64,000 nucleotides of DNA from Elusimicrobiota bacterium (GCA_003452935.1 DMMY01000005.1:57858-121857), one strand, 5' to 3'; shown: positions 30,954-57,608, numbered from the stretch's first letter. A program made the numbers and translations. The notes: a model not told the origin generated them from the letters alone.

Positions 30954-30979
30954 GGTCGGACTTTGTTCGAAGATTGAAC

Positions 30980-31008
30980 ATTGTACCAATTGGCCGTCGT
31001 CAGGTCAA
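30980..31008 (-). promoter_or_regulatory. Promoter/operator B: -35 TTGACC, 17 nt, -10 TACAAT, with an overlapping TGTTCgAAgaTTgAACA imperfect inverted repeat (30964-30980) just downstream
   Basis: The minus strand reads ctTTGACCtgacgacggccaattggTACAATgttcaatcttcgaacaaagtccgaccATG. It has the same architecture and about 30 nt of near-identity with the element upstream of pseB (57568..57596). Confidence 0.5.
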
Positions 31009-33429
31009 AGCCGCGTCCGGATTTCGGGGAACGTGCAGCAGGTAGTAAGAGAGACCCAGCAGATAGGCGCCGACAAGCGCCATGCCCGCTCCCCACACTC
31101 CCCAGCGGGGGATGAGCCAGAGTCCCAGTCCGACGTTTCCCAGCCCGGCCAGCAGGTTGCCGACGACCGAGACGCGCAGGCCTGAGAAGTCGCGGGCCAT
31201 GAACAGGGCGGCGCAGATTCCGTGGAGCAGGATAAGGGCCGCGGCCAGGGCAAAAGTCGCGATCCAGGCCCAGTGGAACGGATATTGCCGGCCGAATATG
31301 GACAGGGCCGCCACGGCGCTCAAGGAGAAAAGCAGGAGGGAGGCCGCGGCCAGGGCCGGGCGCAGGCGGCGCAGGCTGCGCCAGGCCTCGTTCTGGCCCT
31401 CGGGGTTGCTGGCCACCGGCACCAGGACAGAGGTGATGATGTAGAGAAACGCGAGGCTGATCTGCGCGGTGGACGTGAAATAGGCGCTGAATATGCCTAC
31501 CTGGTGCGCGTCGAAGAACCGGTTCAGGAAGAGCCGGCCCGGGCCCACGATGCAGGCCGCGGTCAGGAGGTTGAGCGCGGCCATCAAGGTGTAGCTGAAG
31601 ACGATTCGGATGGCGGCCGGATCAAAGATAGGCTTGAGGTAGGTCCTGAGGTTCCAGCCCGAATATACCGCGGCCAGGGCCAGGCTCAGGCACAAGGTCA
31701 GGATGATGGCGTGGTAGGTTCGGGTGCCGTGCAGCACGAAGACCAGGAAGAACAGGGGAGCGGAGAAGCCGTAAACGGCCTCGGACAAGCCGCGCTCCGC
31801 GAAGCGCTGCAGCCCCAGAAGGGGGCTGGAGATGACCACATAGAGGGCCGTGCAGAAGGAGAAAATAATGGAGTCCGTGATGATTTCCGCTGGCACATTG
31901 AGGGAGCCGGCGATGGCGCCTCGCAAAAATGTCAAGGCCGCCAAACAGAGGACGGCCCAAAGCCCGAACATGCTCAGGGTCGTGGAGACGAGTTTTTCCC
32001 GCGCCGGCCGGGAGGGTTCGCTGGAGGGGAACTTGCTCAAGGCCCATTGAAAACCCATCATGGGCAGGATCTGGATGAATGAGGCGATGGCGATGACGAG
32101 GTTGGCCTTCCCGAAATGTTGGGGTCCCAGCACCCGTCCGGCCAGTATCTGGGTCGCCAAGGTGGAGATTTTGGCCATGCCGTAAAGCAGTCCGATCCAG
32201 GTGAATCCCCGCAGAAACGAGCGGGCGTGCTTGCGCTCCCACCAGGGCCCGTCCGCGCACGCGGCGGCCTGACCGGACGCGGCGGGCCGCCGAACCTCTT
32301 GCCAGGCCTTGCGCATCGCCGCCCGGAAGCGGCCGAACTCGGCCGGGTAGGTGTGCTCCAGAGCCAGGCTTCGGCGCTCTTCGCGCAGTCCGGCGGTCTC
32401 GGTGGCGGGCAGGTTACGGGCGATGCGCACCCAGTCCTCGGGAGAGTCCGCCACGTAGACGAGGCGGCGCAGGGGAGCGAAGGCCGGCAGGGGGGTGGCG
32501 AGGATGGGCCGGCCCATGGCCAGGCATTCGTATATCTTGGCCGGGATCACGCCCAGCAGGAACGGGTTGATGCGGTAGGGCAGGATGAAGACGTCGAAAT
32601 TTTCGAGGCGCTGAACCAATTGCTCGCGCGGGACCGGCGGCAGTCGCCGTATGGCGGGGGGCAGGGGCGAAGCCGAGCCCTTGGAGAAGCCGCTTACCGT
32701 CACGCTGAAACCCGCCTCGGCAAGCGCGACGGGAAACCGTGGATCGAGGTCCTGGCCCCAGGTTCCGTAATAGCAGAACCTGAGAAACCTCTGCTCGGCG
32801 GGGCGGGCCGCGAAGAAAGACTCCGGCACCCCTTGATGGATCTGAACCACGTTGCCGTGCTCCGCCCTTTTCTGCTCATAGAGGAAGTCCGAATCGCAGA
32901 TTACGAGATCCGCGCGTCCGAGCAGTTCGGCTTCCTGCCGGGCGAAGTCCTTTGGGGCTCGGGGATGGGCGCGGAAATTGGAAGCGCAGTCGTAAATGAC
33001 CGCGGCGGGCTGCAGCTGGCGCACAAGCTCCAGCGTCGTGGCCGTTGGAAAATACGTTATGACCAGGGGATGGCGGCGCAGGCCCCGGCTGCGCAGGGAG
33101 GCGATGAGCTGCGGGATCAGAATGCCCGCGTTGAAACGCCGGAAGGGAGGGTAGGTCGGCGGCAAGAGCTGGGGCGGCATGACGCGCAGAGCATGCGGCA
33201 GGGACTCCTGGGACGACGGGTCGGGAGCGTCGGCCAATCTGCGCAGTTTGCGCCAGAGGCGCGGAAGGTCTTTGAGTCCCGGGTTTCTAAATCCGGAGTT
33301 TTCCACGAAAAAGACTTCATGCCCGGCTTGGGCCAGCTGCCAGGCGAATATCTGGTGGCGCTGCCAGGCCGCGTCCCAGTCGATGCTGCTCAGGACCACG
33401 ACTTGGGACTTTTCGAACTCTTCCATCAA
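31000..33429 (-). CDS. Bifunctional fusion: N-terminal TuaH-like GT4 glycosyltransferase plus a C-terminal Wzx-type (MOP superfamily) polysaccharide flippase
   Basis: Residues 1-~400 match the TuaH/WcaL-like GT4 pattern: VVVLSSIDWDAAWQRHQIFAWQLAQAGHEVFFVEN...IYECLAMGRPILATP. Residues ~410-809 are a 12-TM polysaccharide-biosynthesis (Wzx) type transporter: MAKISTLATQILAGRVLGPQHFGKANLVIAIASFIQILP... Last gene of the long operon. Confidence 0.7.
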   Translation of the reverse strand: MMEEFEKSQVVVLSSIDWDAAWQRHQIFAWQLAQAGHEVFFVENSGFRNPGLKDLPRLWRKLRRLADAPDPSSQESLPHALRVMPPQLLPPTYPPFRRFNAGILIPQLIASLRSRGLRRHPLVITYFPTATTLELVRQLQPAAVIYDCASNFRAHPRAPKDFARQEAELLGRADLVICDSDFLYEQKRAEHGNVVQIHQGVPESFFAARPAEQRFLRFCYYGTWGQDLDPRFPVALAEAGFSVTVSGFSKGSASPLPPAIRRLPPVPREQLVQRLENFDVFILPYRINPFLLGVIPAKIYECLAMGRPILATPLPAFAPLRRLVYVADSPEDWVRIARNLPATETAGLREERRSLALEHTYPAEFGRFRAAMRKAWQEVRRPAASGQAAACADGPWWERKHARSFLRGFTWIGLLYGMAKISTLATQILAGRVLGPQHFGKANLVIAIASFIQILPMMGFQWALSKFPSSEPSRPAREKLVSTTLSMFGLWAVLCLAALTFLRGAIAGSLNVPAEIITDSIIFSFCTALYVVISSPLLGLQRFAERGLSEAVYGFSAPLFFLVFVLHGTRTYHAIILTLCLSLALAAVYSGWNLRTYLKPIFDPAAIRIVFSYTLMAALNLLTAACIVGPGRLFLNRFFDAHQVGIFSAYFTSTAQISLAFLYIITSVLVPVASNPEGQNEAWRSLRRLRPALAAASLLLFSLSAVAALSIFGRQYPFHWAWIATFALAAALILLHGICAALFMARDFSGLRVSVVGNLLAGLGNVGLGLWLIPRWGVWGAGMALVGAYLLGLSYYLLHVPRNPDAALT

Positions 33430-34352
33430 TCGCCTGCCGGCTGCGCGGCCCGGGCCAGGGCCCAGTCATAGGTGTCGCGCAGGGTGCGCTCCAGGCTCAG
33501 GCGGGGCCGCCAGCCGGTGAGCCGGCGCAGCTTGCGGTAGGAGCAGGCCACGTGCAGGGCTTCGCCGCGGCGGCGCCTTGAGGCTTCGCCGCGCGCCTGG
33601 GCGCGAATCCCGGCGACGGTCATGAGCCGCCGCAGCATGGCTCCGGTTGAAACCGCCGCGCCGGAGGAGACGTTATAGATTTCTCCCGAAACGCCGCGCT
33701 CGGCCAGCATGGCCAGGGCGCGGGCCGCGTCTCGGACGTCGATGAGATCCCGGCTGGAACGGAGATTGCCGACTTTGATGAGCGGGGGCTGCGATCCCCG
33801 CTTGATGCGGGCCAGCTGCCGGGCGAACGTCCCGAGCGCCAGGTTTTCCGGCATGCCGGGACCTACGAGATTGGCGATGCGGGCCACGACTACGTCGAGG
33901 CCCGCGTGGCGGTAGGAAAGGGCGGTCAAGGATTGGCTGAGTTTCATGGCGCCATAAAGCGTCAGTGGCCGAGGGGGAAAATCCTCGGTCAGGAGGCCGC
34001 CGGCAGCGGCGCCGTACTCGGCCGACGAGCCTGCCGTCACGACCCTCACGCGCTCGGGCCGGGGCAGGCTCCTGACGGCTTCCAGAAGGTTCACGGTCGA
34101 GTTGGCAAAGGTTGCCCAAAGTTCGTCCCAGGGCCGGGCCAGCGTCGTTCCCGCCAGGTGAAAGATGACCGCGGGGGATACGCGGCGCACGGCCCGCCCC
34201 GCGGCCGCGGGATCGCGCAGGTCGCAGGTGATGATCCCCGGGCCCGGCACATGGTCGAGGCGGGCCACTCGGGCGCCGGGGCGACGGCGGCGCAGTTCCG
34301 CCGCAAGATGGCCGGCCAAGAAACCCCGGCCCCCGGTGATGAGGAAGGTCAT
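33426..34352 (-). CDS. NAD-dependent epimerase/dehydratase family protein (SDR)
   Basis: The real start is MTFLITGGRGFLAGHL (Rossmann). The 107 upstream codons of the track ORF are Arg/Pro-rich non-coding. Active-site YGAMK (YxxxK) is present. The ATG overlaps the upstream stop (ATGA). Confidence 0.75.
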   Translation of the reverse strand: MTFLITGGRGFLAGHLAAELRRRRPGARVARLDHVPGPGIITCDLRDPAAAGRAVRRVSPAVIFHLAGTTLARPWDELWATFANSTVNLLEAVRSLPRPERVRVVTAGSSAEYGAAAGGLLTEDFPPRPLTLYGAMKLSQSLTALSYRHAGLDVVVARIANLVGPGMPENLALGTFARQLARIKRGSQPPLIKVGNLRSSRDLIDVRDAARALAMLAERGVSGEIYNVSSGAAVSTGAMLRRLMTVAGIRAQARGEASRRRRGEALHVACSYRKLRRLTGWRPRLSLERTLRDTYDWALARAAQPAGD

Positions 34353-35062
34353 CGCCGCAGATACTTGGCGCGGCCTTGGGGCGACGAGAACAGGTCTTGG
34401 GCGGCTTGATAGTCCTCGGGCCGGCCGATGTCCAGCCACTCGGCGCCGTTGCGAAAGCCGATGACGGGCTCTCCGGCTTCGCGCAAGCGGGAGATGAGCT
34501 CTGGGATGCCGATGGCCTCCCCCGGCCGGATGAGGCCCAGGACCTTCCGGTCGAAGACGTTGACGCCCATGCTGACCAGGTAGCGGTAGGCGGGCTTTTC
34601 CACATAGGCCTGGAGCCGGTTCTCGGCGTCGAGGCGGATGGTTCCGAAATCCACGAGAGTCTGGCGCTGGCACACCGCGATCGTGGCCGCGGCCCGGGAG
34701 CGTCGATGGCCGGCGAAGAGCGCGCGAAAATCCAGGGTGGTGAGGATGTCTCCGTTGATGGTGAGAAAATCCTCGCGCAGGCCGCGGATAAGCTTGAGCG
34801 CGCCGGCCGTGGAGAGCGGCTTGTCCTCGCGCACGTAGCGGATGCGCAGCCGCCAGCGGCGGCCGTCGCCGCAGTAGGCCTCGATGAGCTCGGCCAGATG
34901 GCCGGTGGACACGATGACCTCGTTGAAGCCGAAGTGCTTGAGCTGGCGCAGCACGATCTCGATGATGGGATAGTCGCCCACCGGGACCAGGGGCTTGGGC
35001 AGGGAGGTGGTAAAAGGCCTCAACCGCGTGCCCTTGCCGCCCGCCAGGATGACCGCTTGCAT
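34349..35062 (-). CDS. Sugar-phosphate nucleotidyltransferase (NTP_transferase; glucose-1-P cytidylyl/thymidylyltransferase-like)
   Basis: N-terminal MQAVILAGGKGTRLRPFTTSLPKPLVPV signature of nucleotidyl transferases; 237 aa. Confidence 0.85.
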   Translation of the reverse strand: MQAVILAGGKGTRLRPFTTSLPKPLVPVGDYPIIEIVLRQLKHFGFNEVIVSTGHLAELIEAYCGDGRRWRLRIRYVREDKPLSTAGALKLIRGLREDFLTINGDILTTLDFRALFAGHRRSRAAATIAVCQRQTLVDFGTIRLDAENRLQAYVEKPAYRYLVSMGVNVFDRKVLGLIRPGEAIGIPELISRLREAGEPVIGFRNGAEWLDIGRPEDYQAAQDLFSSPQGRAKYLRR

Positions 35063-35063
35063 A

Positions 35064-36056
35064 TCAGACGTTGTAGAGGCCGGCCTTGAAGTCGGCGCGA
35101 TGTCTCGTCATGTAATCGATGGTCCGGGCCAGGCCTTCGTCGAAAGACCAGCTTGGTTTCCAGCCCAGCAAACGCCGTGCCTTGCGGTTGTCGCAGACCA
35201 GGCGCATGACCTCGCTGCGCTCCGGCCGCGTGCGCGCCGCGGACTTGGCGACGCGGGCTTGGCGGCCCATAAGGCGCATGATGGTTTGCGCGGTCTGGGC
35301 GATGCTCACGCCCCGGCCCGAGCCGATGTTGATGACCTCGCCCACGGACTTGGGCGAGGCGGCCACGGCCAAAAATCCCTCGACCGTGTCCGCCACGTAG
35401 TTGAAGTCCCGGATCGTCGAGGTCGAGCCCAGCTCCAGCGTGGGCCGGCCTTCCAGAAGCTGGGAGATGATGGTGGGGATCACGGCGCGGGCCGATTGTC
35501 TCGGCCCGAAGGTGTTGAAGGGCCGGATCACGGCCACGGGCAGGCCGAAGCAGCGGAAATAGCTTTCCGCCAGATGGTCGGCTCCGATCTTGGTCGCGGA
35601 ATAAGGGGATTGGCCCTGCAAGGGATGGGCTTCGTCGATGGGCACGTAGCGCGCCGTGCCGTAGACCTCGGAAGTCGAGGTCACCACGAGCTTGCGGGTC
35701 TTGCGGCCGCGGCAGGCTTCGAGCACGTTCAAGGTGCCGGCGAGGTTGGCCGCGACGTAGCTGGCCGGCGCCGCGTATGAGTAGGGGATGGCGATCAAGG
35801 CGGCCAAGTGGAAGACGATGTCCTGGCCCTCGACGAGCCGGGCCACGCACTGGGGATCCGTGACGTCGCCGGGGAGCACCTCGATGCGGCGCAGGGATTG
35901 GGCGTCGAGCTTTTCCAGGAGGCCCCAATGGCTGCGGGAATTGTAGCGGACCATGGCCCGGACCTTGGCTCCGCGCCGGGAAAGCTCCTCGGCCAGATGG
36001 CTGCCGATGAAGCCGCCGGCTCCGGTCACGAGCACGCGCGCGTCTTTCCAATTCAT
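35064..36056 (-). CDS. NAD-dependent sugar 4,6-dehydratase/epimerase (SDR; CDP/dTDP-glucose 4,6-dehydratase-like)
   Basis: The start MNWKDARVLVTGAGGFIGSHL is internal to the track ORF. TSTSEVYG and YSATKIGADHL (YxxxK) are present. Paired with the adjacent nucleotidyltransferase. Confidence 0.8.
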   Translation of the reverse strand: MNWKDARVLVTGAGGFIGSHLAEELSRRGAKVRAMVRYNSRSHWGLLEKLDAQSLRRIEVLPGDVTDPQCVARLVEGQDIVFHLAALIAIPYSYAAPASYVAANLAGTLNVLEACRGRKTRKLVVTSTSEVYGTARYVPIDEAHPLQGQSPYSATKIGADHLAESYFRCFGLPVAVIRPFNTFGPRQSARAVIPTIISQLLEGRPTLELGSTSTIRDFNYVADTVEGFLAVAASPKSVGEVINIGSGRGVSIAQTAQTIMRLMGRQARVAKSAARTRPERSEVMRLVCDNRKARRLLGWKPSWSFDEGLARTIDYMTRHRADFKAGLYNV

Positions 36057-37576
36057 TTTTTCGGCACCTCCGAGATGGCCGGGGGCAGGTCGAATCCCAT
36101 GTATTTTTCCCGGCACTCATCGCGCAGCTCCTGCCAGGCGCGGTCGCCCTCCGGGGTGAGCTTCTCGGCTTGGGCGATGCGGCTCCATCGCTCCTTGGGC
36201 ATCTTCACGTACAGCACAAAGCAGCGCCGCAGACCCTCGATGGCGTCCCGGGAGAACTGGGGCATGTCCAGGATCGTGGGCTTGGTGATGCAGCTGGCCA
36301 GGCTGTCGGGCTTGATGAAGCCCAGTGCTTCGGCTTGCGCGCGCAAGGGCGTTCCGTGAAACGGGGTGTAGGAGTAGGCGTTGTAGCCGTCGGCCAAAAC
36401 CTGGCGGTTGAGCTCTATGGTGTCGAAAGCGAGCTGCCGGGTCTCATGGGGAAAACCCAGGATGTTGTTGGTGCTGAAGGGAATGCCCAAGCGATTGAGT
36501 ATGGCCAGGCGCTCGACGATCGTGCGGTTGCTCACTCGGCGGGCCAGGTGCTTTTCCCGGAAAGCCTCGTTGCCGTGCTCGATGCCGAAGGACACGCGCA
36601 AAAGCCCGATCTCCTTCAAGCGGCGGAAGCGCTCCTCAATGACGGTCTCGGGCCGGGTCTGTATCCAGAAGGGAAGCTTGAACTCGGAGTACATGTCGCA
36701 GAAAGCCGCGAAATCCCGGTCATTGTAGGCCAGGAAGCTGTCGGCCCAGAAATAGAATGAATCCGCGCCATAGGCTCCGGCCAGATGCCTGAGCTCGGCG
36801 CGGACCTTGTCCGCGCTGCGCATGCGAAAGAAGCGATGCCCTGCCTGGCGATAGGCCTCGGTCTGGGCCGGGGAATTGCAGTAGGCGCAGGTGTAGGGGC
36901 AGCCGCGGATGGTCTCGACCGGAAGCATGCGCCAGAGCTTGCCCTGCATGGGCCGCAGGAACCTGCTTTCCTCGAAAAGACCGTAGTCGGGCAGGGGCAG
37001 GGTCTCCGTGTTGACGGGCCTGGGCAGGGGACTCGAGATTTTCGGGTTCAAGGACCAAAGCCCAGGGGTGCCGGCCGGGTCCTGGCCTTTTTCCAGGCGC
37101 CGGCAAAACTCGGGCAGGGAATCCTCGCCTTCGCCGATGAGGACATGGTCGATCAATCCTTGGGAAAGGCGCAGGGCGAGCTCAGGCGCGAATGTGGCGA
37201 AGACTCCTCCCAAGACCACGCGGGGCCGGTCCTTGGGAAGGGCGCAGAGCAGGCGCAGGGCAATGGGGTACATGTCCTCGGTGGCTGATATGGCGATGAG
37301 GCCGGGCTTCCAGGAGGCGACTTTTTGCGCGAAGTCCTGGGGCGCCGGGCTGTGCCGGTCATGTTGGCGCAAAAGGCTGTCGTCGAAAGGCCGGGCATTG
37401 AGATGCTCGGCCTTGGATTTGTCGCTGTCAAAGCCGTTGTCTAGGTCCGGGTAGTTGGTGGTGTCGAAGAGCGCGACTTCGTGGCCCGCGGATTTGAGGA
37501 TGGAGGTGAACAGTCCCAAGGCCGGGGGCAGCATGTTCATGCCCGCCATGTTTGGGTAGACGAGCAGGATTCTCAT
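36053..37576 (-). CDS. Cobalamin (B12)-binding-domain radical SAM enzyme (class B)
   Basis: N-terminal B12-binding-like Rossmann region (MRILLVYPNMAGMN...GHEVALFDTT). The radical-SAM cluster motif is GCPYTCAYCNS (CxxxCxxC). The track ORF continues to a TTG at 37675 across a 38-bp palindrome; the internal ATG (MRILLV) is preferred. Confidence 0.75.
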   Translation of the reverse strand: MRILLVYPNMAGMNMLPPALGLFTSILKSAGHEVALFDTTNYPDLDNGFDSDKSKAEHLNARPFDDSLLRQHDRHSPAPQDFAQKVASWKPGLIAISATEDMYPIALRLLCALPKDRPRVVLGGVFATFAPELALRLSQGLIDHVLIGEGEDSLPEFCRRLEKGQDPAGTPGLWSLNPKISSPLPRPVNTETLPLPDYGLFEESRFLRPMQGKLWRMLPVETIRGCPYTCAYCNSPAQTEAYRQAGHRFFRMRSADKVRAELRHLAGAYGADSFYFWADSFLAYNDRDFAAFCDMYSEFKLPFWIQTRPETVIEERFRRLKEIGLLRVSFGIEHGNEAFREKHLARRVSNRTIVERLAILNRLGIPFSTNNILGFPHETRQLAFDTIELNRQVLADGYNAYSYTPFHGTPLRAQAEALGFIKPDSLASCITKPTILDMPQFSRDAIEGLRRCFVLYVKMPKERWSRIAQAEKLTPEGDRAWQELRDECREKYMGFDLPPAISEVPKK

Positions 37577-37625
37577 GCTCGGCGCCAAGCCGCATGCTCG
37601 AAGATCAGGATTGCGCAGGGTCGAG

Positions 37626-37663
37626 TTATCCCCAAACATATCCCGGGATATGTTTGGGGATAA
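37626..37663. repeat. 38-bp perfect palindrome (19-bp inverted repeat, no spacer): TTATCCCCAAACATATCCC|GGGATATGTTTGGGGATAA
   Basis: Read directly from the sequence; the right arm is the exact reverse complement of the left arm. It lies just upstream of the preferred start of the rSAM gene, at the edge of a ~400-bp low-GC spacer (37676-38074). Confidence 0.8.
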
Positions 37664-38074
37664 GCGCCAAGGCAAAGAGGGCTAGAGCAAAGGTTGCGGA
37701 TATCTCGCATAAGACAAAGAAATTATACCAATTTGAGGCTATGACTCTTTGGCTAAAGGGAGGCGCGCCGGGCCTCCAGTCAAAGCTGAACTCCTGAAAT
37801 TCGATTATGAGCCGTTCGGGGCACTCCCAACGGAAAATATAATTTCCTTGACAACTACATATATCTATTCAGGCCGGGAGATCAACAGTTCGATGCGTGC
37901 CGAGTCCCTTTATCCCGCCCGCAACCCAGGCAGACCCGGATGCGCCAAAATCCAAAACCATGCTTCCCATATCCGGAATATCTTTGAGTCAATTCGAGAG
38001 CTTATGGCTCCCACTGAAAATTCAGAACGCGTGATCGGATTTTGAACTCCCGCCCTGTCGCCGCAGGCGCTTAT

Positions 38075-38986: not shown

Positions 38987-38993
38987 TCTATTT

Positions 38994-40130: not shown

Positions 40131-40142
40131 GTGATTTTCTCC

Positions 40143-48404: not shown

Positions 48405-48444
48405 GGCATTGCCGGCGGCGCAGGGTTGACTACGATAATCGTCA

Positions 48445-48453
48445 TTATAGCAA
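48445..48453 (-). promoter_or_regulatory. Candidate internal extended -10 promoter (TGcTATAAT on the minus strand) upstream of the SPASM rSAM gene
   Basis: In the 63-bp gap 48405-48467 the minus strand reads ggttTTGcTATAATgacgattatcgtag, a perfect TGnTATAAT. A small inverted repeat ATAATcgtcATTAT overlaps it. Confidence 0.3.
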
Positions 48454-48467
48454 AACCTTTTTTGGGC

Positions 48468-49976: not shown

Positions 49977-51484
49977 GCGCGCCGCTCCAGGCCCAGGAGC
50001 TTGTGGACTTCGGCGCGCTCTTCAGGGGAAAGCATGAGGAAGTAGTAGGCTGAGAGAGCCAGGCCGTAGGCCGCGGCCATCTCAGCCAAGGTCGCGATCA
50101 GGTTCGCGGGATAAGCGAAACGAAAAGCCAGGCCGCAAAACCCGGCCGCCAACGCGTAGAGCGGCAAATTGGGCCGCACCGAGCGGTTGAAGAACTCGGA
50201 GAACGGAACGGCCAGGCTGCGCAAGGACAGGCGCATGACCAGCGGGAAGCCGACGAGCACCATGGAGGCGCTCAGGCCCACGGCCATGGCCGTGACCCCA
50301 AGGGGACGGATCAGGGATACGCCGATGACCATGTTGGCCGCGGCCACGGCCGCGCTGATGAACATGGGCTCGCGCACGATTCCCTTGGCCGAGAGCATGG
50401 ACCCCGCCAACTCGCTGGTGCCGTTGAATAGCCAGAAGAAGATGATGATGCGCGCGGGCAGAACGCTCTCCTCGAATCCGGGTCCCATCCAGGTCAGGAT
50501 GAAGGGCTTGACGAAGAAGAGCATGATGACCACCACGGGCACGAACATGGCGCTCATGAGCTTGGTCCCGGTGAAGAGCAGGCGGCGCTGGCCCGCGAAG
50601 TCGCCCTGGCCTTCCATCTGGGAGGCGATGGTCCAGGGCGGGCCGCCGAGCGAGCCGTTGATGGTGCGGAATATGCTCTGCACGTTGAAGGCGATGGCGT
50701 AGACCGTGACCGCGGAGAGGGAAAGGAAGTGGCCGATGATCAGATTGTGGACCTGGAAGAGGAAGATGTTGATCAGCGCGCTTATGAATATGTACATGCT
50801 GAAGCTGAAGATGAGCCGGTAGGTGTCCATGTCGAGGCACGGAAAACGGAGCCGGAACCGAGCCCGGCCGCGGGAGACCAGGAAGAGCGCGAGGTTGCCC
50901 AGAATGGTCAGGGATTGCGACAAAAGCAGCAGTTCCACGATGCCGCGGCCGCTCTTGAGCAGCATGACCGCGCCCAGGGCGTTGGCGAGCTGGGCGATGA
51001 TGTTGACGAGGGAATCCGCGCCCCAGAGCTGCAGGCCTTGGGCCACGCCGCGGAAAGTGCTCGAAGGCCACATGAGCACGGCCGTGGCCGCGGCTACGAG
51101 GAAGAGCCGGCGCACGATCTCGCGGTTCTCCGCCCCGACCTGGAAGAAGTCCGTGAACCAATGGCCGCAGGCGAGCATCATCAGGGAGATGGCGATTCCC
51201 ACCAGGACGTAGAAAGAAAACGACGCGCTGATGATTCGGTCGACCCGGTCCTGGTCCCCCTTGCCCGTGTATTCGGCCACGTACTTGGTCAGGGCCGACA
51301 TGATCTTGAAGTCGAGCAGGCCCAGGTAGCCGGTCACGGTCAGGACGATGGTGTAGACTCCGTAGACGTCCTTGCCCACGTGGCGGACGATGAAGGGCAG
51401 GATGGCCAAATTGACCAGGACGGTCACGGCCCGGTTCATGGCCGTCAGGCGCATGTTGGCTCCGATGAGGCGTATCCGGGACAT
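49973..51484 (-). CDS. Wzx-type polysaccharide biosynthesis/export flippase (MOP superfamily, ~12-14 TM)
   Basis: The real start is MSRIRLIGANMRLTAMNRAVTVLVNLAILPFIVRHVGKDVYGVYTIVLT, the characteristic Polysacc_synt N-terminus. The ~227 upstream codons of the track ORF overlap the next gene in another frame and are artefact. Confidence 0.8.
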   Translation of the reverse strand: MSRIRLIGANMRLTAMNRAVTVLVNLAILPFIVRHVGKDVYGVYTIVLTVTGYLGLLDFKIMSALTKYVAEYTGKGDQDRVDRIISASFSFYVLVGIAISLMMLACGHWFTDFFQVGAENREIVRRLFLVAAATAVLMWPSSTFRGVAQGLQLWGADSLVNIIAQLANALGAVMLLKSGRGIVELLLLSQSLTILGNLALFLVSRGRARFRLRFPCLDMDTYRLIFSFSMYIFISALINIFLFQVHNLIIGHFLSLSAVTVYAIAFNVQSIFRTINGSLGGPPWTIASQMEGQGDFAGQRRLLFTGTKLMSAMFVPVVVIMLFFVKPFILTWMGPGFEESVLPARIIIFFWLFNGTSELAGSMLSAKGIVREPMFISAAVAAANMVIGVSLIRPLGVTAMAVGLSASMVLVGFPLVMRLSLRSLAVPFSEFFNRSVRPNLPLYALAAGFCGLAFRFAYPANLIATLAEMAAAYGLALSAYYFLMLSPEERAEVHKLLGLERRA

Positions 51485-51486
51485 GC

Positions 51487-53226
51487 CTAGGCTCCCAACT
51501 CCCGGCGCAAGGTCTCGGTCCAGACCCTTGGCCAGTCCGCCGAGGTGCGGGCGTAGCGCTCGACAAAGGCGGCGCGCGCGGCCCGGGTCTTGGGCTGTTG
51601 CCACCAAGCCTCGGGATCGTCCCATATCCGCAGCGCGTGGCGCGCCGCTGACTCGGGGTCCGGATGCACGACGCCCGCCTCGCGCAGAGCCTCGAAATAG
51701 GGCCGCGCTTCTTCGCGGCTTTCCCAAAGGCTGTCCTGCCAGAAGTGCACGCTGGGCTTGTCCAAGGCCAGTATCTCGGAGAAAGGCGTGCCGGGATAGT
51801 CCGTGACAGCCAGGCGCGTCGTTGAGAGACGTTGGCGCAGCGGAACCGAGGCTTGGTCGCGGCGCAGGTTCGGGAAGCGCCGGCTTAGACGCTGACGCAG
51901 GCCCCAGCCGTAGTCGTGAGGATAGGGCCGCAAGCAGGCCTGGCTGATCCGCGGGCCCAAGCCGGCCAGGAACCGCTCCAGCCACGAGAAATATTCTTCC
52001 CATTGCCAGCCCAGTGGGTGGGGAAAAAGGTGGTGCGCGTTGCGCACGTTCTCGACGGAGAAAATCAGGACGTCCTCGCCGCTGGACCGGGCCGGACTGG
52101 CGCCGGAGGATAATCGCGGGACCGGCAAGTCTTGGGCCCGGTTGTCTTGCGCCGAGGCGGACCAACCCCAGGTGAAAAACCGGTCGCAGACCTCGCGCTC
52201 GTGTCTTTCAGCCAGAGAATATTTCGCCGTTCCATATTGCCCGCCATGCTGAAGTCCCCAGAGCCGCGCGCCCCGTTCCACCCATTCCGCGGCCGCCAGC
52301 TTGAAGGTCTCATTGTAATAGAGCCCGGTGCTGGCCATGACGGCGCGCGGTACGTGGGAACTTTGACCCAAAGATGACTGCCGCGCCGCGGCAAAGCCTT
52401 CCAGCAAGATCGTCGGCAGAGCCCAAGGCAGGGAGCTGACGAGCAGCCGCTCGAACTCGTCTCGGGTCTTAAGTCCGCCCAGGCCCTGGTGGCGGGAGTC
52501 GTCGACAGGCGCCGCGCGCTGGGGGAAGCTGCCGGAAACCAGCAAAGGCAGGGCCTGGCCGCGCATCTTTTGGACCAATCGCCAAAGCAGGCGGCGGCCC
52601 GCGGGGTAGAGGTCGTCGGAAACTATTTTAGGCCTCAAAAGCGAGATCGCGCATCGGCTGGCAAATCCCAAAATGCGGTCGCTGGGATTGCGGGGCGGGA
52701 GCTTAGGCGTCGGAGGGGGCGCGTGCCTGCGAGCCGGGAAGTCCCGGCCCAGGAATCGGAATATGTGGGAGTAGAGCTGGAGATTGCAATGGTCCGTGTG
52801 GTAGAAGCGGTGGAAATCAGCCGCGTCGCGCGGGATGTAGAAGTCCTCAACGGCCAGGACCAAAGATCTTGCGTCCGGGTATTCCTTTAGAGCTTCCACG
52901 ATCTGGGTGTAGCGGTCAAAGAGCTGGTGCGTGTAATAGAGCAGCCAAGGGCCGGCGAGTATGCGCCAGTAGCGCGGGCTTAGCGCAACGCCATGAACCG
53001 CGTTGAGATAGTCGGCGAGCTTGGCCAAAAGTTCAGGCTGAAGATCGCCGCAATAGGCCGCGGCGCGCTCCAGGCGGGCTCTGTCGTCCCAGACATTGCC
53101 CAGCCGGCGGGAGCGGACGTCGGCGAGCCAGTCCGGATCATCGTAGCGGACGCACCAAGGGCCCAAGAGAAGCACCTCGTCTTGGGTGTCCCAGAACTCC
53201 TTGAGCGCCGTGGTGGCCAGGAACAA
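51487..53226 (-). CDS. Hypothetical protein (~580 aa) of a family seen in nonulosonic-acid/O-antigen loci; putative transferase
   Basis: Coding-like from LFLATTALKEFWDTQDEVLLLGPWC onward. A TTG about 10 nt downstream of an AGAAGGAGA Shine-Dalgarno is the likely start. The first ~84 track codons are Arg/Ser-rich and overlap the upstream gene. No catalytic motif is recognised. Confidence 0.4.
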   Translation of the reverse strand: MFLATTALKEFWDTQDEVLLLGPWCVRYDDPDWLADVRSRRLGNVWDDRARLERAAAYCGDLQPELLAKLADYLNAVHGVALSPRYWRILAGPWLLYYTHQLFDRYTQIVEALKEYPDARSLVLAVEDFYIPRDAADFHRFYHTDHCNLQLYSHIFRFLGRDFPARRHAPPPTPKLPPRNPSDRILGFASRCAISLLRPKIVSDDLYPAGRRLLWRLVQKMRGQALPLLVSGSFPQRAAPVDDSRHQGLGGLKTRDEFERLLVSSLPWALPTILLEGFAAARQSSLGQSSHVPRAVMASTGLYYNETFKLAAAEWVERGARLWGLQHGGQYGTAKYSLAERHEREVCDRFFTWGWSASAQDNRAQDLPVPRLSSGASPARSSGEDVLIFSVENVRNAHHLFPHPLGWQWEEYFSWLERFLAGLGPRISQACLRPYPHDYGWGLRQRLSRRFPNLRRDQASVPLRQRLSTTRLAVTDYPGTPFSEILALDKPSVHFWQDSLWESREEARPYFEALREAGVVHPDPESAARHALRIWDDPEAWWQQPKTRAARAAFVERYARTSADWPRVWTETLRRELGA

Positions 53227-53230
53227 AGAG

Positions 53231-53965
53231 CTATTTCTCCTTCTGGGGGACTCCGGCGTTGAGCGCGGAGAGTTCTGGATGCGCGCGCGCGTAAGCCAGG
53301 ACTTCCCGATAGGGCAGTATTTTGCGGTCCAGGCCCAGCTCAAGGTAGATCCGGCGGACCATGGCGAGGTCTTCCGGGGTGTCCACGGTCCAGCGCAAAT
53401 CCGAGTTGTCCTGCGCGTCGACGACGGAACAGGTCTTGAACAGCTCGGGCCTCTCCTTGAGCAGGAAATAGGTGACATGCTCGCGCGCCGGGGCGGAAGA
53501 GGCGAGAGAGTTCATGCGCTCGAGGGCCTCGCGGGTGAAGGCCTCGGCGTCAAGGCCGCGCGGAAACGTCCTGGGCAGGATATTGGAGGCGTAGTCGCAA
53601 GTTCCAGCGCTGTCTTCCAGAGCCTGGATGACGCGGTCGGTTTGCTCCGAGTCGATGAGGGGGCAGTCCGAGGTCACGCGGACCACGATGTCGGCGCAGG
53701 CTTCCCGCGCAGCCAAGGCGTAGCGGCTCAGGACGTCCGTTTCGCTGCCGCGAAAGGCCTGAGCGCCTTCGGCGCGGGCGATATCCGCGACCGGATCGTC
53801 GCTGGAATTGGTGGTGGTGGCCACCACGAGAGCGTCGGCCCGGCGGCAGTCGCGTAATCGGCGCAGCTGCTGGGCCAGCATGGGGCGGCCGGCCAAATCC
53901 ATGAGGACCTTGCCGGGCAGGCGCGTGGACGTCATGCGGGCCTGGACGATGATGACGCGCTTCAT
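53231..53965 (-). CDS. Cytidylyltransferase-family protein (SpsF/PseF-like, CTP_transf_3)
   Basis: N-terminal MKRVIIVQARMTSTRLPGKVLMDLAGRPML is the SpsF/FlmC-type signature; 244 aa. Confidence 0.75.
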   Translation of the reverse strand: MKRVIIVQARMTSTRLPGKVLMDLAGRPMLAQQLRRLRDCRRADALVVATTTNSSDDPVADIARAEGAQAFRGSETDVLSRYALAAREACADIVVRVTSDCPLIDSEQTDRVIQALEDSAGTCDYASNILPRTFPRGLDAEAFTREALERMNSLASSAPAREHVTYFLLKERPELFKTCSVVDAQDNSDLRWTVDTPEDLAMVRRIYLELGLDRKILPYREVLAYARAHPELSALNAGVPQKEK

Positions 53966-54462
53966 GAGGGCCGTTCTGGAGCCAGCTTAAGTTCGAGCCG
54001 GTACGCGACCGTTCCTTTGATTCGAACCAGCTTTTGAAATTGGAAGCCGGCCTTTATGAAAACAACGACAGAGGCGATATTCTCCGGCTTGATATGGGCG
54101 ACAAGGCGGCGCAGGCGTCTTCCTTTGATGAGGGAGGGAATGCGCTTGAGCATGGCGCCTGCAACGCCTTGGCCTCTGCAGGATGGCGCCACCGTGATGC
54201 TGACCTCGGCGACGCCGGCCGCGGCATGATCCAGGCGCAATTGGCCCAGGCTGTCGCCTTCAGGGCCGCAGGCCATGAGGATCAGGCTGCGCGGATCATC
54301 AAGTTTGGCCGCGAACCAGCGTTGATGGACCGGCCAGGAAATCCGCCCCGGGGTCAAGGAGTGGCGGCGGCTCAACGCGTCATTGCGCCAGGCCCAAATC
54401 GAGCGGCTGTCGCTTTCCTCGGCCGGACGCCAGTTGCGAAAAATATTGGGCTTAGCGCACAT
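53962..54462 (-). CDS. GNAT-family N-acetyltransferase (PseH-like candidate)
   Basis: 166 aa with an acetyl-CoA binding motif RGQGVAGAMLKRIPSLIKG (R/Q-x-x-G-x-G/A). Sits between the NeuB-like synthase and the cytidylyltransferase, as in Pse loci. Confidence 0.65.
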   Translation of the reverse strand: MCAKPNIFRNWRPAEESDSRSIWAWRNDALSRRHSLTPGRISWPVHQRWFAAKLDDPRSLILMACGPEGDSLGQLRLDHAAAGVAEVSITVAPSCRGQGVAGAMLKRIPSLIKGRRLRRLVAHIKPENIASVVVFIKAGFQFQKLVRIKGTVAYRLELKLAPERPS

Positions 54463-55501
54463 CGATTTTCTCCAGGAGATGGTGGGCGGGCAGGCTTTGC
54501 CGGGCGCGGCGTCCCAGAAGTTTTGGAAAGAGCCCGCAGTCCAGGCCCGTGTCGCGCCTGCCGCCCCGGCGCAGAACCGCGAGGTTGTCCCGCGTCAAGC
54601 GCGCGCCCTCGGGAATGGGAAGCAGGGTGAATATGCCGCGCCGGTACTCCCGCAGCTCGAGCTCGACGCTATGCGGGACCTTGACTCCGCTGCCCAGCAT
54701 GGACTCGGCTTGCCGGACGGACGCGACCATTCGGCCCAATTCGTCAGGCTCCAGTGCGTAGGAATGGTCCGGACCCCGCAGCCGGCGCGAAAGCGTGAAG
54801 TGCTTTTCCAGGAGATTGGCTCCCAAGGCCGCGGCCGCGACCGGGGCCACGGCGCAGTCCGCGCTGTGATCGGAGAGGCCCACCGGCACTTTGTAGCGGG
54901 CTTTGAGCCAAGGGATGACATTGAGGTTGAGCGATTTCGGCGGAGCCGGGTATTTGGCCGTGCACTGCATGAGGCAAACGCGGCTTCTGGGCAGGCCTTT
55001 CAGGGCGCGGTCGATCTCCCCGGCGTCCGCGGCTCCGGTCGAGAGAATCAGAGGCTTTCCCAGGCGCGCCACGTGGCGCAGCAAAGGGGCATGAGTCATC
55101 TCATAGGAAGCGATCTTGAAGGCCGGGACAAGCGCCCGGAGCCGGTCCGCGCAGTCCTCGTCAAAGGGCGTGGCCATGAACAGGATGCCGCGCCGTTGGC
55201 AGCGCTTGTAAAGCCTGGGCAGCCAGGACCAGGGCATCTCCATATCCTCGATGACGCGGTAGATGCTCTTCTGGACGCCTAGGCTCTTGAGATAGCGGGG
55301 CCGGACCTCGAGTTTTGGGTAGAGGGTTTGGGCGCGAAAGAGTTGGAATTTGACCGCGTCGGCCCCGGCCGAGGCCGCCACGTCGATGAGGCGCAAGGCT
55401 TGGCTGAGGTTGCCGTCGTGATTGGAGCCGGCCTCGGCGATGATGAAGCAGGGGTGGCCGTCGCCTACGCATCGCCCGCCGATGCGCACCGAGCGCGCCA
55501 T
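54452..55501 (-). CDS. pseI: NeuB-family nonulosonic acid synthase (pseudaminic/legionaminic/N-acetylneuraminic acid synthase) with a C-terminal SAF domain
   Basis: The internal start MARSVRIGGRCVGDGHPCFIIAEAGSNHDGNL is the canonical NeuB N-terminus. Also PFDEDCADRL and KIASYEMTH. The ATG at about 55501 overlaps the upstream stop. The symbol is assigned from Pse-pathway neighbours, not from intrinsic specificity. Confidence 0.85.
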   Translation of the reverse strand: MARSVRIGGRCVGDGHPCFIIAEAGSNHDGNLSQALRLIDVAASAGADAVKFQLFRAQTLYPKLEVRPRYLKSLGVQKSIYRVIEDMEMPWSWLPRLYKRCQRRGILFMATPFDEDCADRLRALVPAFKIASYEMTHAPLLRHVARLGKPLILSTGAADAGEIDRALKGLPRSRVCLMQCTAKYPAPPKSLNLNVIPWLKARYKVPVGLSDHSADCAVAPVAAAALGANLLEKHFTLSRRLRGPDHSYALEPDELGRMVASVRQAESMLGSGVKVPHSVELELREYRRGIFTLLPIPEGARLTRDNLAVLRRGGRRDTGLDCGLFPKLLGRRARQSLPAHHLLEKIDVR

Positions 55502-55502
55502 G

Positions 55503-56468
55503 TTATGGCCGCCTCGGCGATTGGCCAAGCACAAGGCGCGCCACGCGCAAAGCTCCATGGCCGTCGATGAGGCCCCGGCCGCTTTCGGACATGCGCGCGC
55601 GCAGGGCAGGGTCCCGGTCGATCCGGCGCAGGGCCGCGCGCAAATGGACGGCCAGTCCCGGGGCCGCGGCTTTTCCGGCCAACAGCACGGTCCCGGCCTC
55701 TGCCATGCCTAGGACGTTGCCCTTCTGGTCCGGGCCCCGCTCCACCACAGCCGCCGGCGTGCCGGTGAAAGCCAGTTCATAAATCGTCTGACCGCCGGCC
55801 GTCACGGCCGCGTCGCAAGACTCAAGCAGAGGGCGCAGGCTCATAAGCCCGCGATGCCAAACCACGGCCGTCGCGGCAACGGAAGCGGGTTTCGGTGCCA
55901 GCATCCCGATGGCAACATGTATTTCGGCCTGGGGTAAGGCTTGTTGCGCGGCTTTGATGACCGTCTCGGTCAGTGCCTCGCAAATGCCGCCTCCCAAGGT
56001 AATGAGCAGCCGTCGTATTCTGGGACTGATGCGGCGGCGAAGGCTCGGGCTCCAATACTCCTGGCGCAAGGGAAGAAATTTGGGCCCCAGGAGCAGGCCT
56101 GCGGCCGGGCCGGCTGAGAAGCGCAACCCGCGCGCGTAGACATGGCCGTTGAGAATCCAGTCCGCCGGGGCGCGGCATGTGCCGAGGTCATCGAAAGCGA
56201 GCAGGTTGCGGCTCTGGCGCCGCAAACGTTGCCAATCCTGGGGCGAGAAGCGATATGAGTCAGCCGCCAGGATGTCCCAGCGACGGCTGCTTAAGGCGGC
56301 CAGGTCAAAGCCTAAAGACCGCACCCAGAAGCGGCAGGAGGCGGGCACGTCCACGAAAACCGGGCGCGCGCCGAGCTCGCGAAAGGCCTGGGCCAGGGCG
56401 GCGCTGCGGCCCAGGTGCCCCAAGCCCACGTTCGGACCGCCGTCAGCGGCTAGGGCAACTGATCTCAT
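55503..56468 (-). CDS. pseG: PseG-like UDP-sugar hydrolase (UDP-2,4-diacetamido-2,4,6-trideoxy-beta-L-altropyranose hydrolase family, GT-B fold)
   Basis: N-terminal MRSVALAADGGPNVGLGHLGRSAALAQAF matches the PseG signature (R-x-D-x-x-x-x-x-G-x-GH-x-x-R). The C-terminal Gly-rich GT-B region is present. Confidence 0.65.
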   Translation of the reverse strand: MRSVALAADGGPNVGLGHLGRSAALAQAFRELGARPVFVDVPASCRFWVRSLGFDLAALSSRRWDILAADSYRFSPQDWQRLRRQSRNLLAFDDLGTCRAPADWILNGHVYARGLRFSAGPAAGLLLGPKFLPLRQEYWSPSLRRRISPRIRRLLITLGGGICEALTETVIKAAQQALPQAEIHVAIGMLAPKPASVAATAVVWHRGLMSLRPLLESCDAAVTAGGQTIYELAFTGTPAAVVERGPDQKGNVLGMAEAGTVLLAGKAAAPGLAVHLRAALRRIDRDPALRARMSESGRGLIDGHGALRVARLVLGQSPRRP

Positions 56469-57535
56469 GCGCGGGCGATTTGGGGCTGGGCTTCCTGAAT
56501 CAGCGGGCTGATCATTTGCCGCAGGTCGTCAGCCGTAAGCCAGGAGTCGTTGGCGTCGCTGGTATAGCGGAAACCCTCCGGCGGAGCCGAGCCGTTGTGC
56601 CGGCGGGCCTCTCCCCACCAGGGAAAGCTCGGCTTGACGAGGTACATGGGGCCCAGGTCCAGGGTCCGGGCCGCTTCTTCCTCGGTGAGCAGGGCCTCAT
56701 GAAGTTTTTCCCCGGGCCGGATGCCGATGACCTTGGTGCTGCATTCCGGGGCCATGGCCTTGATCAGGTCGAGTATGCGCATGCTCGGGATCTTGGGCAC
56801 GAAGACCTCCCCGCCCTGCATGAGCTCCAGGGCCCGCAGGACCAGGCGCACCCCGCCGTCCAGTGTGATCCAGAAGCGGGTCATGCGCTCGTCGGTCACC
56901 GGCAGAACGCCTTGGGAGCGCTGGCGCAGGTAAAGCGGGATGACGCTGCCCCGGCTGCCCACCACGTTGCCGTAGCGCACCACGCTCAGCCGGGTCTGCG
57001 TGGCCGCGGCATAGGAGTTGCCGGCGATGAAGAGCTTCTCGGCGCAGAGCTTGGTCGCGCCGTAGAGGTTGATGGGATTGACCGCCTTGTCCGTGGAAAG
57101 GGCCACGACTTTGGAGACCTTCTCGTCGATGGCGGCGTTGATGATGTTCTCGCTGCCCATGACGTTGGTGAGTACCGCCTCGAAGGGATTGTACTCCAGG
57201 GTAGGCACCTGCTTGAGGGCCGCGGCGTGCACCACGAAGTCCACCCCGTGAAAAGCGCGCCGCAGGCGCGGCAGGTCGCGCACATCGCCGATGAAAAAGC
57301 GCAGGCGGGAGTCCTTGAAGGCCGCGGCCATCTCGGACTGCTTGAGCTCGTCGCGGCTGAAGACTATGAGCTTGCGCGCCTTGGAGAGCTCAAGAGCCGC
57401 GCCTATGAAGCGTTTGCCGAAGGAGCCGGTGCCGCCCGTGACCAGAACGGTGCGGCCGTCCAGTATTTTGAAATCCGCGCGCGTGAGGGAGCGGATAAAG
57501 TCCGGGGAATCGGCGCGGCGGGCGGGTTTCGTCAT
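56465..57535 (-). CDS. pseB: UDP-N-acetylglucosamine 4,6-dehydratase (inverting), PseB/FlaA1/CapD-type
   Basis: FKILDGRTVLVTGGTGSFGKRFI and later YGATKLCAEKL (YxxxK) are both characteristic. First gene of the long operon, with a GAGAGG Shine-Dalgarno 6 nt upstream. Confidence 0.9.
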   Translation of the reverse strand: MTKPARRADSPDFIRSLTRADFKILDGRTVLVTGGTGSFGKRFIGAALELSKARKLIVFSRDELKQSEMAAAFKDSRLRFFIGDVRDLPRLRRAFHGVDFVVHAAALKQVPTLEYNPFEAVLTNVMGSENIINAAIDEKVSKVVALSTDKAVNPINLYGATKLCAEKLFIAGNSYAAATQTRLSVVRYGNVVGSRGSVIPLYLRQRSQGVLPVTDERMTRFWITLDGGVRLVLRALELMQGGEVFVPKIPSMRILDLIKAMAPECSTKVIGIRPGEKLHEALLTEEEAARTLDLGPMYLVKPSFPWWGEARRHNGSAPPEGFRYTSDANDSWLTADDLRQMISPLIQEAQPQIARA

Positions 57536-57567
57536 GTCTAGCCTCTCTTATAAGGAAAGCATGTTCA

Positions 57568-57596
57568 AACTTTGAACATTGTACGAATTAGCCGCT
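57568..57596 (-). promoter_or_regulatory. Promoter/operator A for the pse/radical-SAM operon: -35 TTGACC, 17 nt, -10 TACAAT, overlapped by a perfect 9-bp inverted repeat ATGTTCAAAcTTTGAACAT (57551-57569) at the TSS
   Basis: The minus strand reads ccTTGACCccaaagcggctaattcgTACAATGTTCAAAGTTTGAACATgctttccttataagaGAGAGGctagacATG. It is near-identical in layout to the element upstream of the wHTH regulator gene (30980..31008). Confidence 0.5.
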
Positions 57597-57608
57597 TTGG
57601 GGTCAAGG

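Follow-up and report, generated by a model that had tools for sequence, protein, structure and literature searches.

How is a surface-glycan gene cluster switched on and off in a bacterium from a group that is essentially uncultured? Few bacterial loci vary as much, or carry as much ecological weight, as such clusters, which are involved in escape from phages and grazers and in host interaction, and to our knowledge their regulation is almost unknown outside a few model pathogens. The question is raised by a stretch of 64,000 nucleotides from an Elusimicrobiota bacterium (GCA_003452935.1 DMMY01000005.1:57858-121857), referred to below as the window, whose positions are counted from its first letter. 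On its minus strand, pseB heads a set of genes for a pseudaminic-acid (Pse)-type nonulosonic acid and other glycan functions, and a small gene further along encodes a winged helix-turn-helix (wHTH) protein, followed by kpsF. An earlier note on this DNA had proposed that the wHTH protein binds a palindrome shared by two near-identical promoters, one in front of its own gene and one in front of pseB, regulating itself and co-controlling the glycan genes. Comparison with other genomes supports this core model: the palindrome accompanies the regulator gene in 29 of 30 genomes, it stands in front of further glycan operons, and a metagenome search with the motif alone leads back to the regulator. 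It is therefore probable, as far as sequence comparison can tell, that the 186-amino-acid wHTH protein binds the shared palindrome and represses both the regulator-kpsF and the pseB promoters. The features concerned are the following.

57561..57606, minus strand: site A, the pseB promoter/operator (direct read, promoter scan and position-specific weight matrix)
57606-57601, minus strand: -35 element TTGACC of site A (direct read)
57583-57578, minus strand: -10 element TACAAT of site A, after a 17-nt spacer
57578-57562, minus strand: 17-bp palindrome TGTTCAAAGTTTGAACA of site A (direct read)
57579-57561, minus strand: perfect 19-bp palindrome ATGTTCAAAGTTTGAACAT of site A (direct read)
57547-57542, minus strand: Shine-Dalgarno sequence GAGAGG of site A, 6 nt before the pseB ATG at 57535
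30964..31008, minus strand: site B, the regulator promoter/operator (direct read, promoter scan and weight matrix)
31008-31003, minus strand: -35 element TTGACC of site B (direct read)
30985-30980, minus strand: -10 element TACAAT of site B, after a 17-nt spacer that carries a TGG extended -10
30980-30964, minus strand: palindrome TGTTCAATCTTCGAACA of site B, with the regulator ATG at 30953
30393..30953, minus strand: regulator gene, 186 amino acids, with an N-terminal winged HTH (residues about 4-68), a helix (70-107) and a C-terminal alpha/beta domain (112-174)

Read along the minus strand, the DNA 5' of pseB has the layout ccTTGACC-17 nt-TACAATGTTCAAAGTTTGAACAT...GAGAGG-6 nt-ATG, and that 5' of the regulator gene reads ctTTGACC-17 nt-TACAATGTTCAATCTTCGAACAaag...ATG. 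The palindrome common to both is TGTTCAA-N3-TYGAACA, whose first base is the last base of the -10 element; from one half-site centre to the other it measures 11 bp, roughly a turn of the helix. Near-consensus sigma70-type hexamers with the usual spacing of 16-18 nt are present at both sites (TTGACC-17-TACAAT), and on the minus strand each of the two is the best sigma70-like match of its region (10/12), B also having the TG. The predicted transcription start site (TSS) of site A lies at about 57571, near the centre of the palindrome, and that of site B at about 30973, which would give a leader of about 20 nt. Direct reading bore out the sequences of both promoters as the earlier note had described them (-35 TTGACC, 17-nt spacer, -10 TACAAT and inverted repeat). 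Its coordinates hold as well, including those of the regulator palindrome (30964-30980), except for the pseB palindrome, which had been placed at 57551-57569 and lies 10 nt away, at 57561-57579. The -35 element of site B falls inside the 3' end of an open reading frame (ORF) for an 809-amino-acid glycosyltransferase-flippase, whose TGA (31002-31000) lies between -35 and -10, and the TAG stop of an AlgX-like ORF (57611-57609) abuts the -35 element of site A. Both promoters are thus exposed to read-through from upstream genes and, with its -35 element within the upstream ORF, site B may also be crossed by transcription that continues into the regulator-kpsF pair.

From the -35 element to the end of the palindrome, sites A and B are identical at 35 of 45 positions, against 26 of 45 for the next-best 45-mer of the window, and the 13-mer GTACAATGTTCAA is found in the window only at these two sites, even with two mismatches allowed. 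A symmetrised 19-nt position-specific weight matrix, built from foreign-genome sites only, scores 31.8 bits at site A and 28.9 bits at site B, with no other window match at or above the cut-off of 14 bits; across 527 kb of comparison loci it returns 47 matches of at least 14 bits versus 0.4 in shuffled sequence. Weaker GTTC-N7-GAAC cores are not enriched in the window (11 one-mismatch matches versus 22.6 expected), and the search for extra weak operators in the window, for example in the internal gap or at a plus-strand PMT-type glycosyltransferase operon, gave none beyond chance. These figures bear on the possibility that the two sites resemble each other by chance, or by a recent local promoter duplication that has no regulatory meaning. 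There are just two copies in the window, and the exact 13-mer statistic alone is modest; however, a matrix built from foreign sites recovers the motif, it is conserved 5' of orthologues at about 33-78 % protein identity, and the flanks beyond the functional elements are dissimilar, which argues against a simple duplication. This explanation is effectively refuted by the cross-genome and metagenome comparisons. A repeat or mobile element was rejected too, given the dissimilar flanks and a direct-repeat search of the window in which the two sites formed no repeat family. Control by ops/JUMPStart and RfaH within the window was also rejected, the sole GCGGTAGNNNTG match being on the wrong strand and at chance level.

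From gene to motif, the comparison used thirty reference-genome loci retrieved by the regulator protein alone at about 33-78 % identity, from Elusimicrobia and one each from Omnitrophica, Spirochaetia, Leptospirales, Planctomycetota and an unclassified bacterium. TGTTC-N7-GAAC[AG] occurs 5' of the regulator gene in 29 of them, and in the thirtieth the site stands 5' of a B12-radical-SAM gene that directly precedes the regulator. Most sites lie 20-50 nt from the regulator start and are preceded by TGnTAnAAT. The 35 oriented Elusimicrobia sites have the consensus A.aTg.TAtAATGTTCAAt..TtGAACA, and in every one the final T of the -10 element is also the first base of the palindrome; a TG extended -10 is present in 21, and TTGACC/G at 16-18 nt, instead of or besides TG, in seven, sites A and B among them. 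These loci contain ten further strong sites with the same sense-oriented fusion of -10 and palindrome directly 5' of a gene, and all ten head glycan operons. One, in the complete Elusimicrobiota genome CP096137.1, heads PseB (68 % identical to the window PseB)-DegT-PseF; behind others lie DegT-methyltransferase-..., NeuB-NeuC-..., B12-radical-SAM-..., ABC exporter-glycosyltransferase, and a 400-amino-acid gene followed by NeuB. This last gene has no Pfam match, and from a reading of its sequence it is presumably a putative sugar amidotransferase. In 9 Elusimicrobia loci KpsF is encoded immediately behind the regulator, and 3 others have it no more than three genes further on. The conserved KpsF pairing, together with the PseB-headed site elsewhere, makes both window promoters members of a conserved regulon. 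One locus (L025, 9948-9994) has two back-to-back operators between divergent genes, GCGTTCAGCGATTGAACAT-TATAGTATAAT-GTTCAATCGCTGAACA, each fused to the -10 element of its own strand, and hence one control region for the regulator and for a divergent operon in which the unannotated 400-amino-acid gene comes first and NeuB lies inside.

The constancy of this fusion could also mean that no dedicated factor is involved, the palindrome being part of the promoter itself or of the initially transcribed region, or else a hairpin in the 5' RNA with an effect on transcript stability or translation. An element always fused to -10 would be partly transcribed, and the RNA of site A could fold into a hairpin of 8 bp (-6.4 kcal/mol, z = -2.3). 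Nevertheless, transcription from sigma70 promoters usually starts about 7 nt past the -10 element, so that only the 3' arm would be transcribed, and the RNA fold of site B (-3.8 kcal/mol) is no better than that of shuffled sequence. In addition, the palindrome is detached from any -10 element in Roseobacter, in Spirochaetia and in operator O1 of SAR11 (see below), and dyad symmetry with half-sites spaced 11 bp apart is the hallmark of proteins that bind DNA as dimers. Conservation concerns the sequence of the arms, whose position 6 forms an uncompensated A.C pair in 12 of 35 sites, and combined with the weak RNA fold it points to a protein-binding DNA site and not to an RNA structure. An RNA element was rejected on account of the weak fold, the uncompensated arm changes and the lack of any Rfam match, nothing in the window reaching the gathering thresholds; control without a dedicated factor is very unlikely altogether.

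In the opposite direction, from motif to gene, metagenome contigs were scanned with the DNA motif TANAATGTTCAWNNNTYGAACA, blind to the genes they carry, which gave at least 120 contigs (629 kb). Among the matches listed, 67 of 1,471 ORFs of at least 60 amino acids (4.6 %) match a hidden Markov model of the regulator N-terminus. The regulator is the first gene behind 37 of the 117 listed sites with enough downstream sequence; it lies no more than 2.5 kb downstream of 8 more and elsewhere on the contig for 22, several of these being divergently adjacent. Where the first gene is not the regulator, it encodes, among the matches listed, mostly nucleotide-sugar dehydratases/epimerases, PseB-type proteins, NeuB or Wzz, and also nucleoside triphosphate (NTP)/cytidine monophosphate (CMP)-transferases, KpsF-type SIS+CBS proteins, DegT or NeuC. 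The homologues on these contigs fall into two length classes, one of about 180 amino acids like the window regulator and one of about 100 amino acids that passes the NCBIfam model TIGR04176 (MarR_EPS) at 131-141 bits. The short forms are carried by very AT-rich marine contigs of Pelagibacteraceae (SAR11), a lineage noted for having very few transcription factors, in which the family comprises at least 8,000 clusters. SAR11 loci picked by protein only show the arrangement ACTGTTCAAAAGTTGAACAA-TATGAT-GTTCAATTATTGAACA-T-ATG, with one operator (O1) over the -35 region and a second (O2) over the start site. The -10 variants of SAR11 lie outside the pattern used for the motif scan, which makes this confirmation independent, and two operators bracketing the -10 element would be the arrangement expected of a repressor. 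The two operators are 23 bp apart (L159, 5960-6802; L167, 304-1143; many of L031-L150), and the start codon follows 1-6 nt past the second, leaving an almost leaderless mRNA. A conserved ORF of about 165 amino acids (MW.[VI][IL]KF...) always comes after the SAR11 regulator; it has a sub-threshold match to the NusG N-terminal domain (E 0.056) and perhaps encodes an antiterminator of RfaH/UpxY type that forms a pair with the repressor.

Co-occurrence is not binding, and the scans covered the window, the fetched loci and metagenome contigs. The palindrome might hence be the operator of a different, unlinked factor, the wHTH gene being one of its targets. GTTC/GAAC half-sites do serve other factors such as LexA, whose boxes are GAAC-N4-GTTC in Gram-positives and TGTTC-N4-GAACA in Verrucomicrobia. 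However, the spacing is N7 rather than N4 and the targets are glycan rather than SOS genes, and a LexA/SOS-type box was rejected for these reasons despite the similar half-sites. Furthermore, motif and regulator go together in at least six phyla and with two protein architectures, and an unlinked factor would need to have travelled along with the regulator. Throughout the regulator family the HTH/recognition helix hardly varies, and in this it matches the invariant half-site. An unlinked binder is, on this evidence, quite improbable.

With the 186-amino-acid wHTH protein as the binder, the mechanism would run as follows. The protein would bind TGTTCAA-N3-TYGAACA, presumably as a dimer. The palindrome spans about -7 to +10 and transcription would start at its centre, so the bound dimer would overlap the -10 element and +1, occluding the promoter and blocking open-complex formation. 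Repression of its own regulator-kpsF promoter would constitute negative autoregulation, and the pseB promoter, which would drive the Pse-type/glycan block, would be repressed as well. Repression would be relieved by a signal, for which the extra C-terminal alpha/beta domain may be the sensor; alternatively, this domain could serve in oligomerisation. The earlier note had called the protein a repressor: the operator position on which this label draws, from the last base of -10 over the start site to about +10, was confirmed, while the sign of regulation is read from that position and is to be taken as putative. The same protein could bind the palindrome as an activator or dual regulator, by promoter remodelling or by displacement of a silencer as SlyA/RovA-type MarR proteins do. 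Some MarR-family regulators of polysaccharides are activators or anti-silencers, among them SlyA and MprA, which act at the kpsF promoter of the Escherichia coli group-2 capsule, and WggR/ExpG, which acts at galactoglucan promoters in Sinorhizobium. In the distant Spirochaetia and Leptospirales homologues (L028, L029) the palindrome is found about 100-130 nt 5' of the start codon and immediately precedes a TTGAC motif, a placement that would suit an activator. By contrast, the palindromes of the window and of about 35 Elusimicrobia sites begin on the last base of -10 and cover the expected start site, and those of SAR11 flank the -10 element, where a bound protein would normally exclude RNA polymerase; moreover, good -10 or extended -10 elements are already present, which should make activation unneeded. 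Activation or dual regulation is considered unlikely, and repression by the wHTH protein is retained.

Several observations weigh against this model. The -35 element is not conserved in the relatives (at least 4/6 matches in only 9 of 35 sites), so that it is chiefly the -10 or extended -10 element, which the relatives do conserve, that identifies these sequences as promoters. Among the 117 listed metagenome sites, 50 have no regulator on their (often short) contig, and some of those in AT-rich DNA may be chance matches. The operators of Roseobacter relatives keep the same half-site at a spacing 1 bp shorter (GTTC-N6-GAAC versus N7), so the operator is not strictly the same family-wide. The motif might also occur at unrelated promoters, the scans having covered the window, the fetched loci and the metagenome contigs, and the slight chance of a second, unlinked factor as the binder counts here too. 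Finally, no experiment on binding, TSS or direction of regulation was found in the literature searched for the host or its relatives.

What kind of protein the regulator is can be judged from its fold and its profile matches. The AlphaFold model (pLDDT 87) consists of a winged HTH, a long helix and a small alpha/beta domain, and in this model the winged-helix fold superposes on solved MarR proteins; no specific structural relative of the C-terminal alpha/beta domain was found. Pfam assigns HTH_24 (35.1 bits, cutoff 21.9) and MarR (26.0 bits, cutoff 24.6) to residues 8-56, the MarR_2 match being below its cutoff. Against TIGR04176, the exopolysaccharide (EPS)-associated MarR family, it scores 52.2 bits (E 5.3e-14, residues 9-100), short of the curated cutoff of 88 bits; long-form homologues from other phyla score 50-59 bits. 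The likeness lies in the N-terminal 100 residues, which align along the whole profile (E 5e-14), in the glycan-locus setting, and in the operator: bona fide SAR11 members bear the same TGTTCAA-N3-TTGAACA and Roseobacter members the same half-site. Like TIGR04176 proteins, which lie in or head polysaccharide loci, the regulator is flanked by kpsF and the 26-kb glycan cluster, and its homologues have similar neighbours. The differences are its score, its length of 186 amino acids, with the long helix and alpha/beta domain added to what is in TIGR04176 a single-domain wHTH of about 100-120 amino acids, and a wing 4 residues shorter. By these profile alignments the regulator is a long-form relative of TIGR04176. 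More than 250 clusters of homologues at 90 % identity were found among word-sharing candidates, nearly all 182-195 amino acids long and from Elusimicrobia, and a profile search for the long-form subfamily gave 892 representative clusters (50 % identity, E up to 1e-10); on plasmids, the long form had no match. Compared with classical MarR repressors (MarR, OhrR, MepR, HucR), only about 95 residues superpose, and where these proteins complete the dimer and ligand pocket with C-terminal helices the regulator has its separate alpha/beta domain. The palindrome 5' of the regulator gene has the geometry and position fitting a MarR operator in the 29 of 30 genomes, the dimer and its binding being presumed. 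The PadR family (wHTH followed by a long C-terminal helix) resembles the regulator at the level of fold only, with no Pfam or NCBIfam match. SlyA/MprA and WggR/ExpG are similar as MarR-like proteins at capsule or EPS promoters, with kpsF as first structural gene of the regulated unit; they differ in that they activate or counteract silencing, bind unrelated sites and have no close kinship detectable at sequence level, whereas here the operator position argues for repression.

Cultured relatives offer a further comparison. On plasmids of the Roseobacter group, annotated TIGR04176 proteins head EPS, O-antigen or legionaminic-acid clusters, and CGTTCA-N4-TGAACG lies 82-118 nt 5' of the regulator in six of seven loci, the seventh having a one-mismatch version. 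Over the loci compared, the half-site is family-wide and the spacing lineage-specific. All seven (L151, L153-L158) also carry GTGCGGTAGCCRTGG about 15-30 nt 5' of the regulator start, which resembles the ops/JUMPStart site for RfaH loading, and two of these loci also have a divergently oriented RfaH/NusG-family gene next door. In this setting the MarR_EPS gene apparently opens an EPS operon dependent on RfaH. On a plasmid of Aliarcobacter butzleri (NZ_CP104379.1; locus L152, 821-2453), an annotated MarR_EPS regulator stands directly 5' of tet(H) instead of glycan genes, with only an imperfect palindrome, AGTTCAAAGTTTAAACA, 5' of it; it may be a displaced or recruited copy. Two papers on Leptospira place a marR gene at the boundary of the rfb O-antigen cluster; this gene is at most a candidate member of the family. 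Starting from the Leptospirales protein, which comes from a metagenome-assembled genome, homologue searches found no cultured Leptospira.

The proposed mechanism, a locally encoded, autoregulated MarR-like repressor that occludes the -10 element, is of a familiar textbook type. In the literature searched, TIGR04176 and its long-form relatives have no described operator, regulon or effector, the family name being used as annotation only, and Pse-type clusters no dedicated regulator. What would be new is the assignment of protein to operator, the predicted glycan regulon and its reach across phyla, SAR11 included. A broader idea can be put forward tentatively, being somewhat less probable than its negation: TGTTCA-N5-TGAACA, with an N4 variant in Rhodobacterales, could be the cognate operator of the whole TIGR04176/MarR_EPS superfamily, a pan-bacterial, dedicated and autoregulated switch heading hypervariable surface-glycan islands, in which the C-terminal domain of the long form would sense a pathway metabolite (a nucleotide-sugar or CMP-nonulosonate) for end-product feedback. 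If so, the Pse and 3-deoxy-D-manno-octulosonic acid (Kdo) clusters of Elusimicrobia, the SAR11 glycan island, the EPS and legionaminic-acid plasmids of Roseobacter and possibly the marR that delimits rfb in Leptospira would be examples of one switch. In practical terms, the analysis yields a candidate protein/operator pair, a position-specific matrix usable for annotating glycan-island promoters in metagenomes, and a predicted regulon consisting of the Kdo precursor gene kpsF and the genes for Pse-type nonulosonic acid and glycan. It also suggests what a named but uncharacterised NCBIfam family, and the long-form subfamily of 892 clusters, may do.

Which genes would answer to the two promoters depends on the transcription units between and behind them.

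38075..57535, minus strand: glycan gene block led by pseB (Pfam/NCBIfam; gaps of at most 63 nt or overlaps)
56465-57535, minus strand: pseB (TIGR03589)
37577..38074, minus strand: non-coding gap of about 500 nt, which breaks the array
31000..37576, minus strand: second co-directional block (Pfam)
29401..30396, minus strand: kpsF, arabinose-5-phosphate isomerase with SIS+CBS domains, its start overlapping the regulator stop by 4 nt

The first block, probably a transcription unit driven by promoter A, encodes PseG-like, NeuB/PseI-like, GNAT (PseH-like), cytidylyltransferase, LIC12162-family transferase and MatE/flippase proteins, together with B12-radical-SAM and SPASM enzymes, a short-chain dehydrogenase/reductase, a 2-hydroxyacid dehydrogenase, a haloacid dehalogenase-type protein, a DegT/PseC-like aminotransferase and a family 2 glycosyltransferase (GT2). 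What looks like a 226-nt gap at 44.7-44.95 kb probably belongs to a coding sequence. The second block contains a B12-radical-SAM gene (likely ATG at 37576), an unknown gene of 366 amino acids, an NTP-transferase, an epimerase/dehydratase and the 809-amino-acid glycosyltransferase-flippase fusion, and the 4-nt stop/start overlap implies that kpsF is co-transcribed with the regulator. All junctions between the two sites are overlaps or gaps of at most 63 nt, except for the gap at 38074-37577, which has a GC content of 0.53 (window mean 0.63). This gap holds a perfect extended -10, TGGTATAAT (37730-37722), a candidate promoter with no operator palindrome, and a 30-nt perfect palindrome, CCCCAAACATATCCCGGGATATGTTTGGGG (37659-37630), which forms an RNA hairpin of -25.1 kcal/mol (z = -6) in the leader of the B12-radical-SAM gene; an Rfam search of the gap gave no match at E up to 1. 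This palindrome may be a second operator or an element for RNA stability or processing. The operator-less extended -10 and the very stable hairpin suggest that the stretch from pseB to the regulator is divided into two or more transcription units. The single 26-kb glycan operon of the earlier note is therefore probably wrong in detail. The likeliest layout has promoter A driving pseB...GT2 (about 19.5 kb), an operator-less internal promoter driving B12-radical-SAM...glycosyltransferase-flippase (about 6.6 kb) and promoter B driving regulator-kpsF, with read-through possible at each junction.

Regarding the product of the cluster, PseB passes the TIGR03589 equivalog model (485 bits, cutoff 407.75), and the other Pse steps score below their equivalog cutoffs: PseC 334.5 (423.5), PseG 102.7 (153.55), PseI 267 (340.25), PseH 26.5 (93.1) and PseF 26 (205.7). 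The synthase scores 303.4 with the NeuB model (cutoff 399.65), above its PseI score. Divergent homologues of every Pse step are present, with divergent proteins in 53231-56468 and 38994-40130. As only PseB is above its cutoff, the product is named a Pse-type nonulosonic acid and not pseudaminic acid proper, from which it may differ. The cluster also has three B12-binding radical-SAM enzymes and one radical-SAM/SPASM enzyme (36053-37675, 40143-41690, 48468-49976 and 47385-48404), a concentration that suggests radical C-methylation or other unusual sugar tailoring. These genes share short DNA repeat segments (families D5 and D8), and B12-radical-SAM genes also head operator-controlled operons in loci L003 and L023. 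Two further genes (51487-53478 and 41609-43414) encode a LIC12162-family transferase (TIGR04331, 432 bits) and a weak match to TIGR04326, families named after proteins of the Leptospira O-antigen locus and found here in an Elusimicrobia cluster. Lastly, and unrelated to the operator, a plus-strand ORF of 1,268 amino acids (60084-63890) contains 5-6 tandem repeats of about 165-168 nt (55-56 amino acids) at 61011-61880 with a recurring ...GDGG.A... motif, possibly of beta-propeller type.

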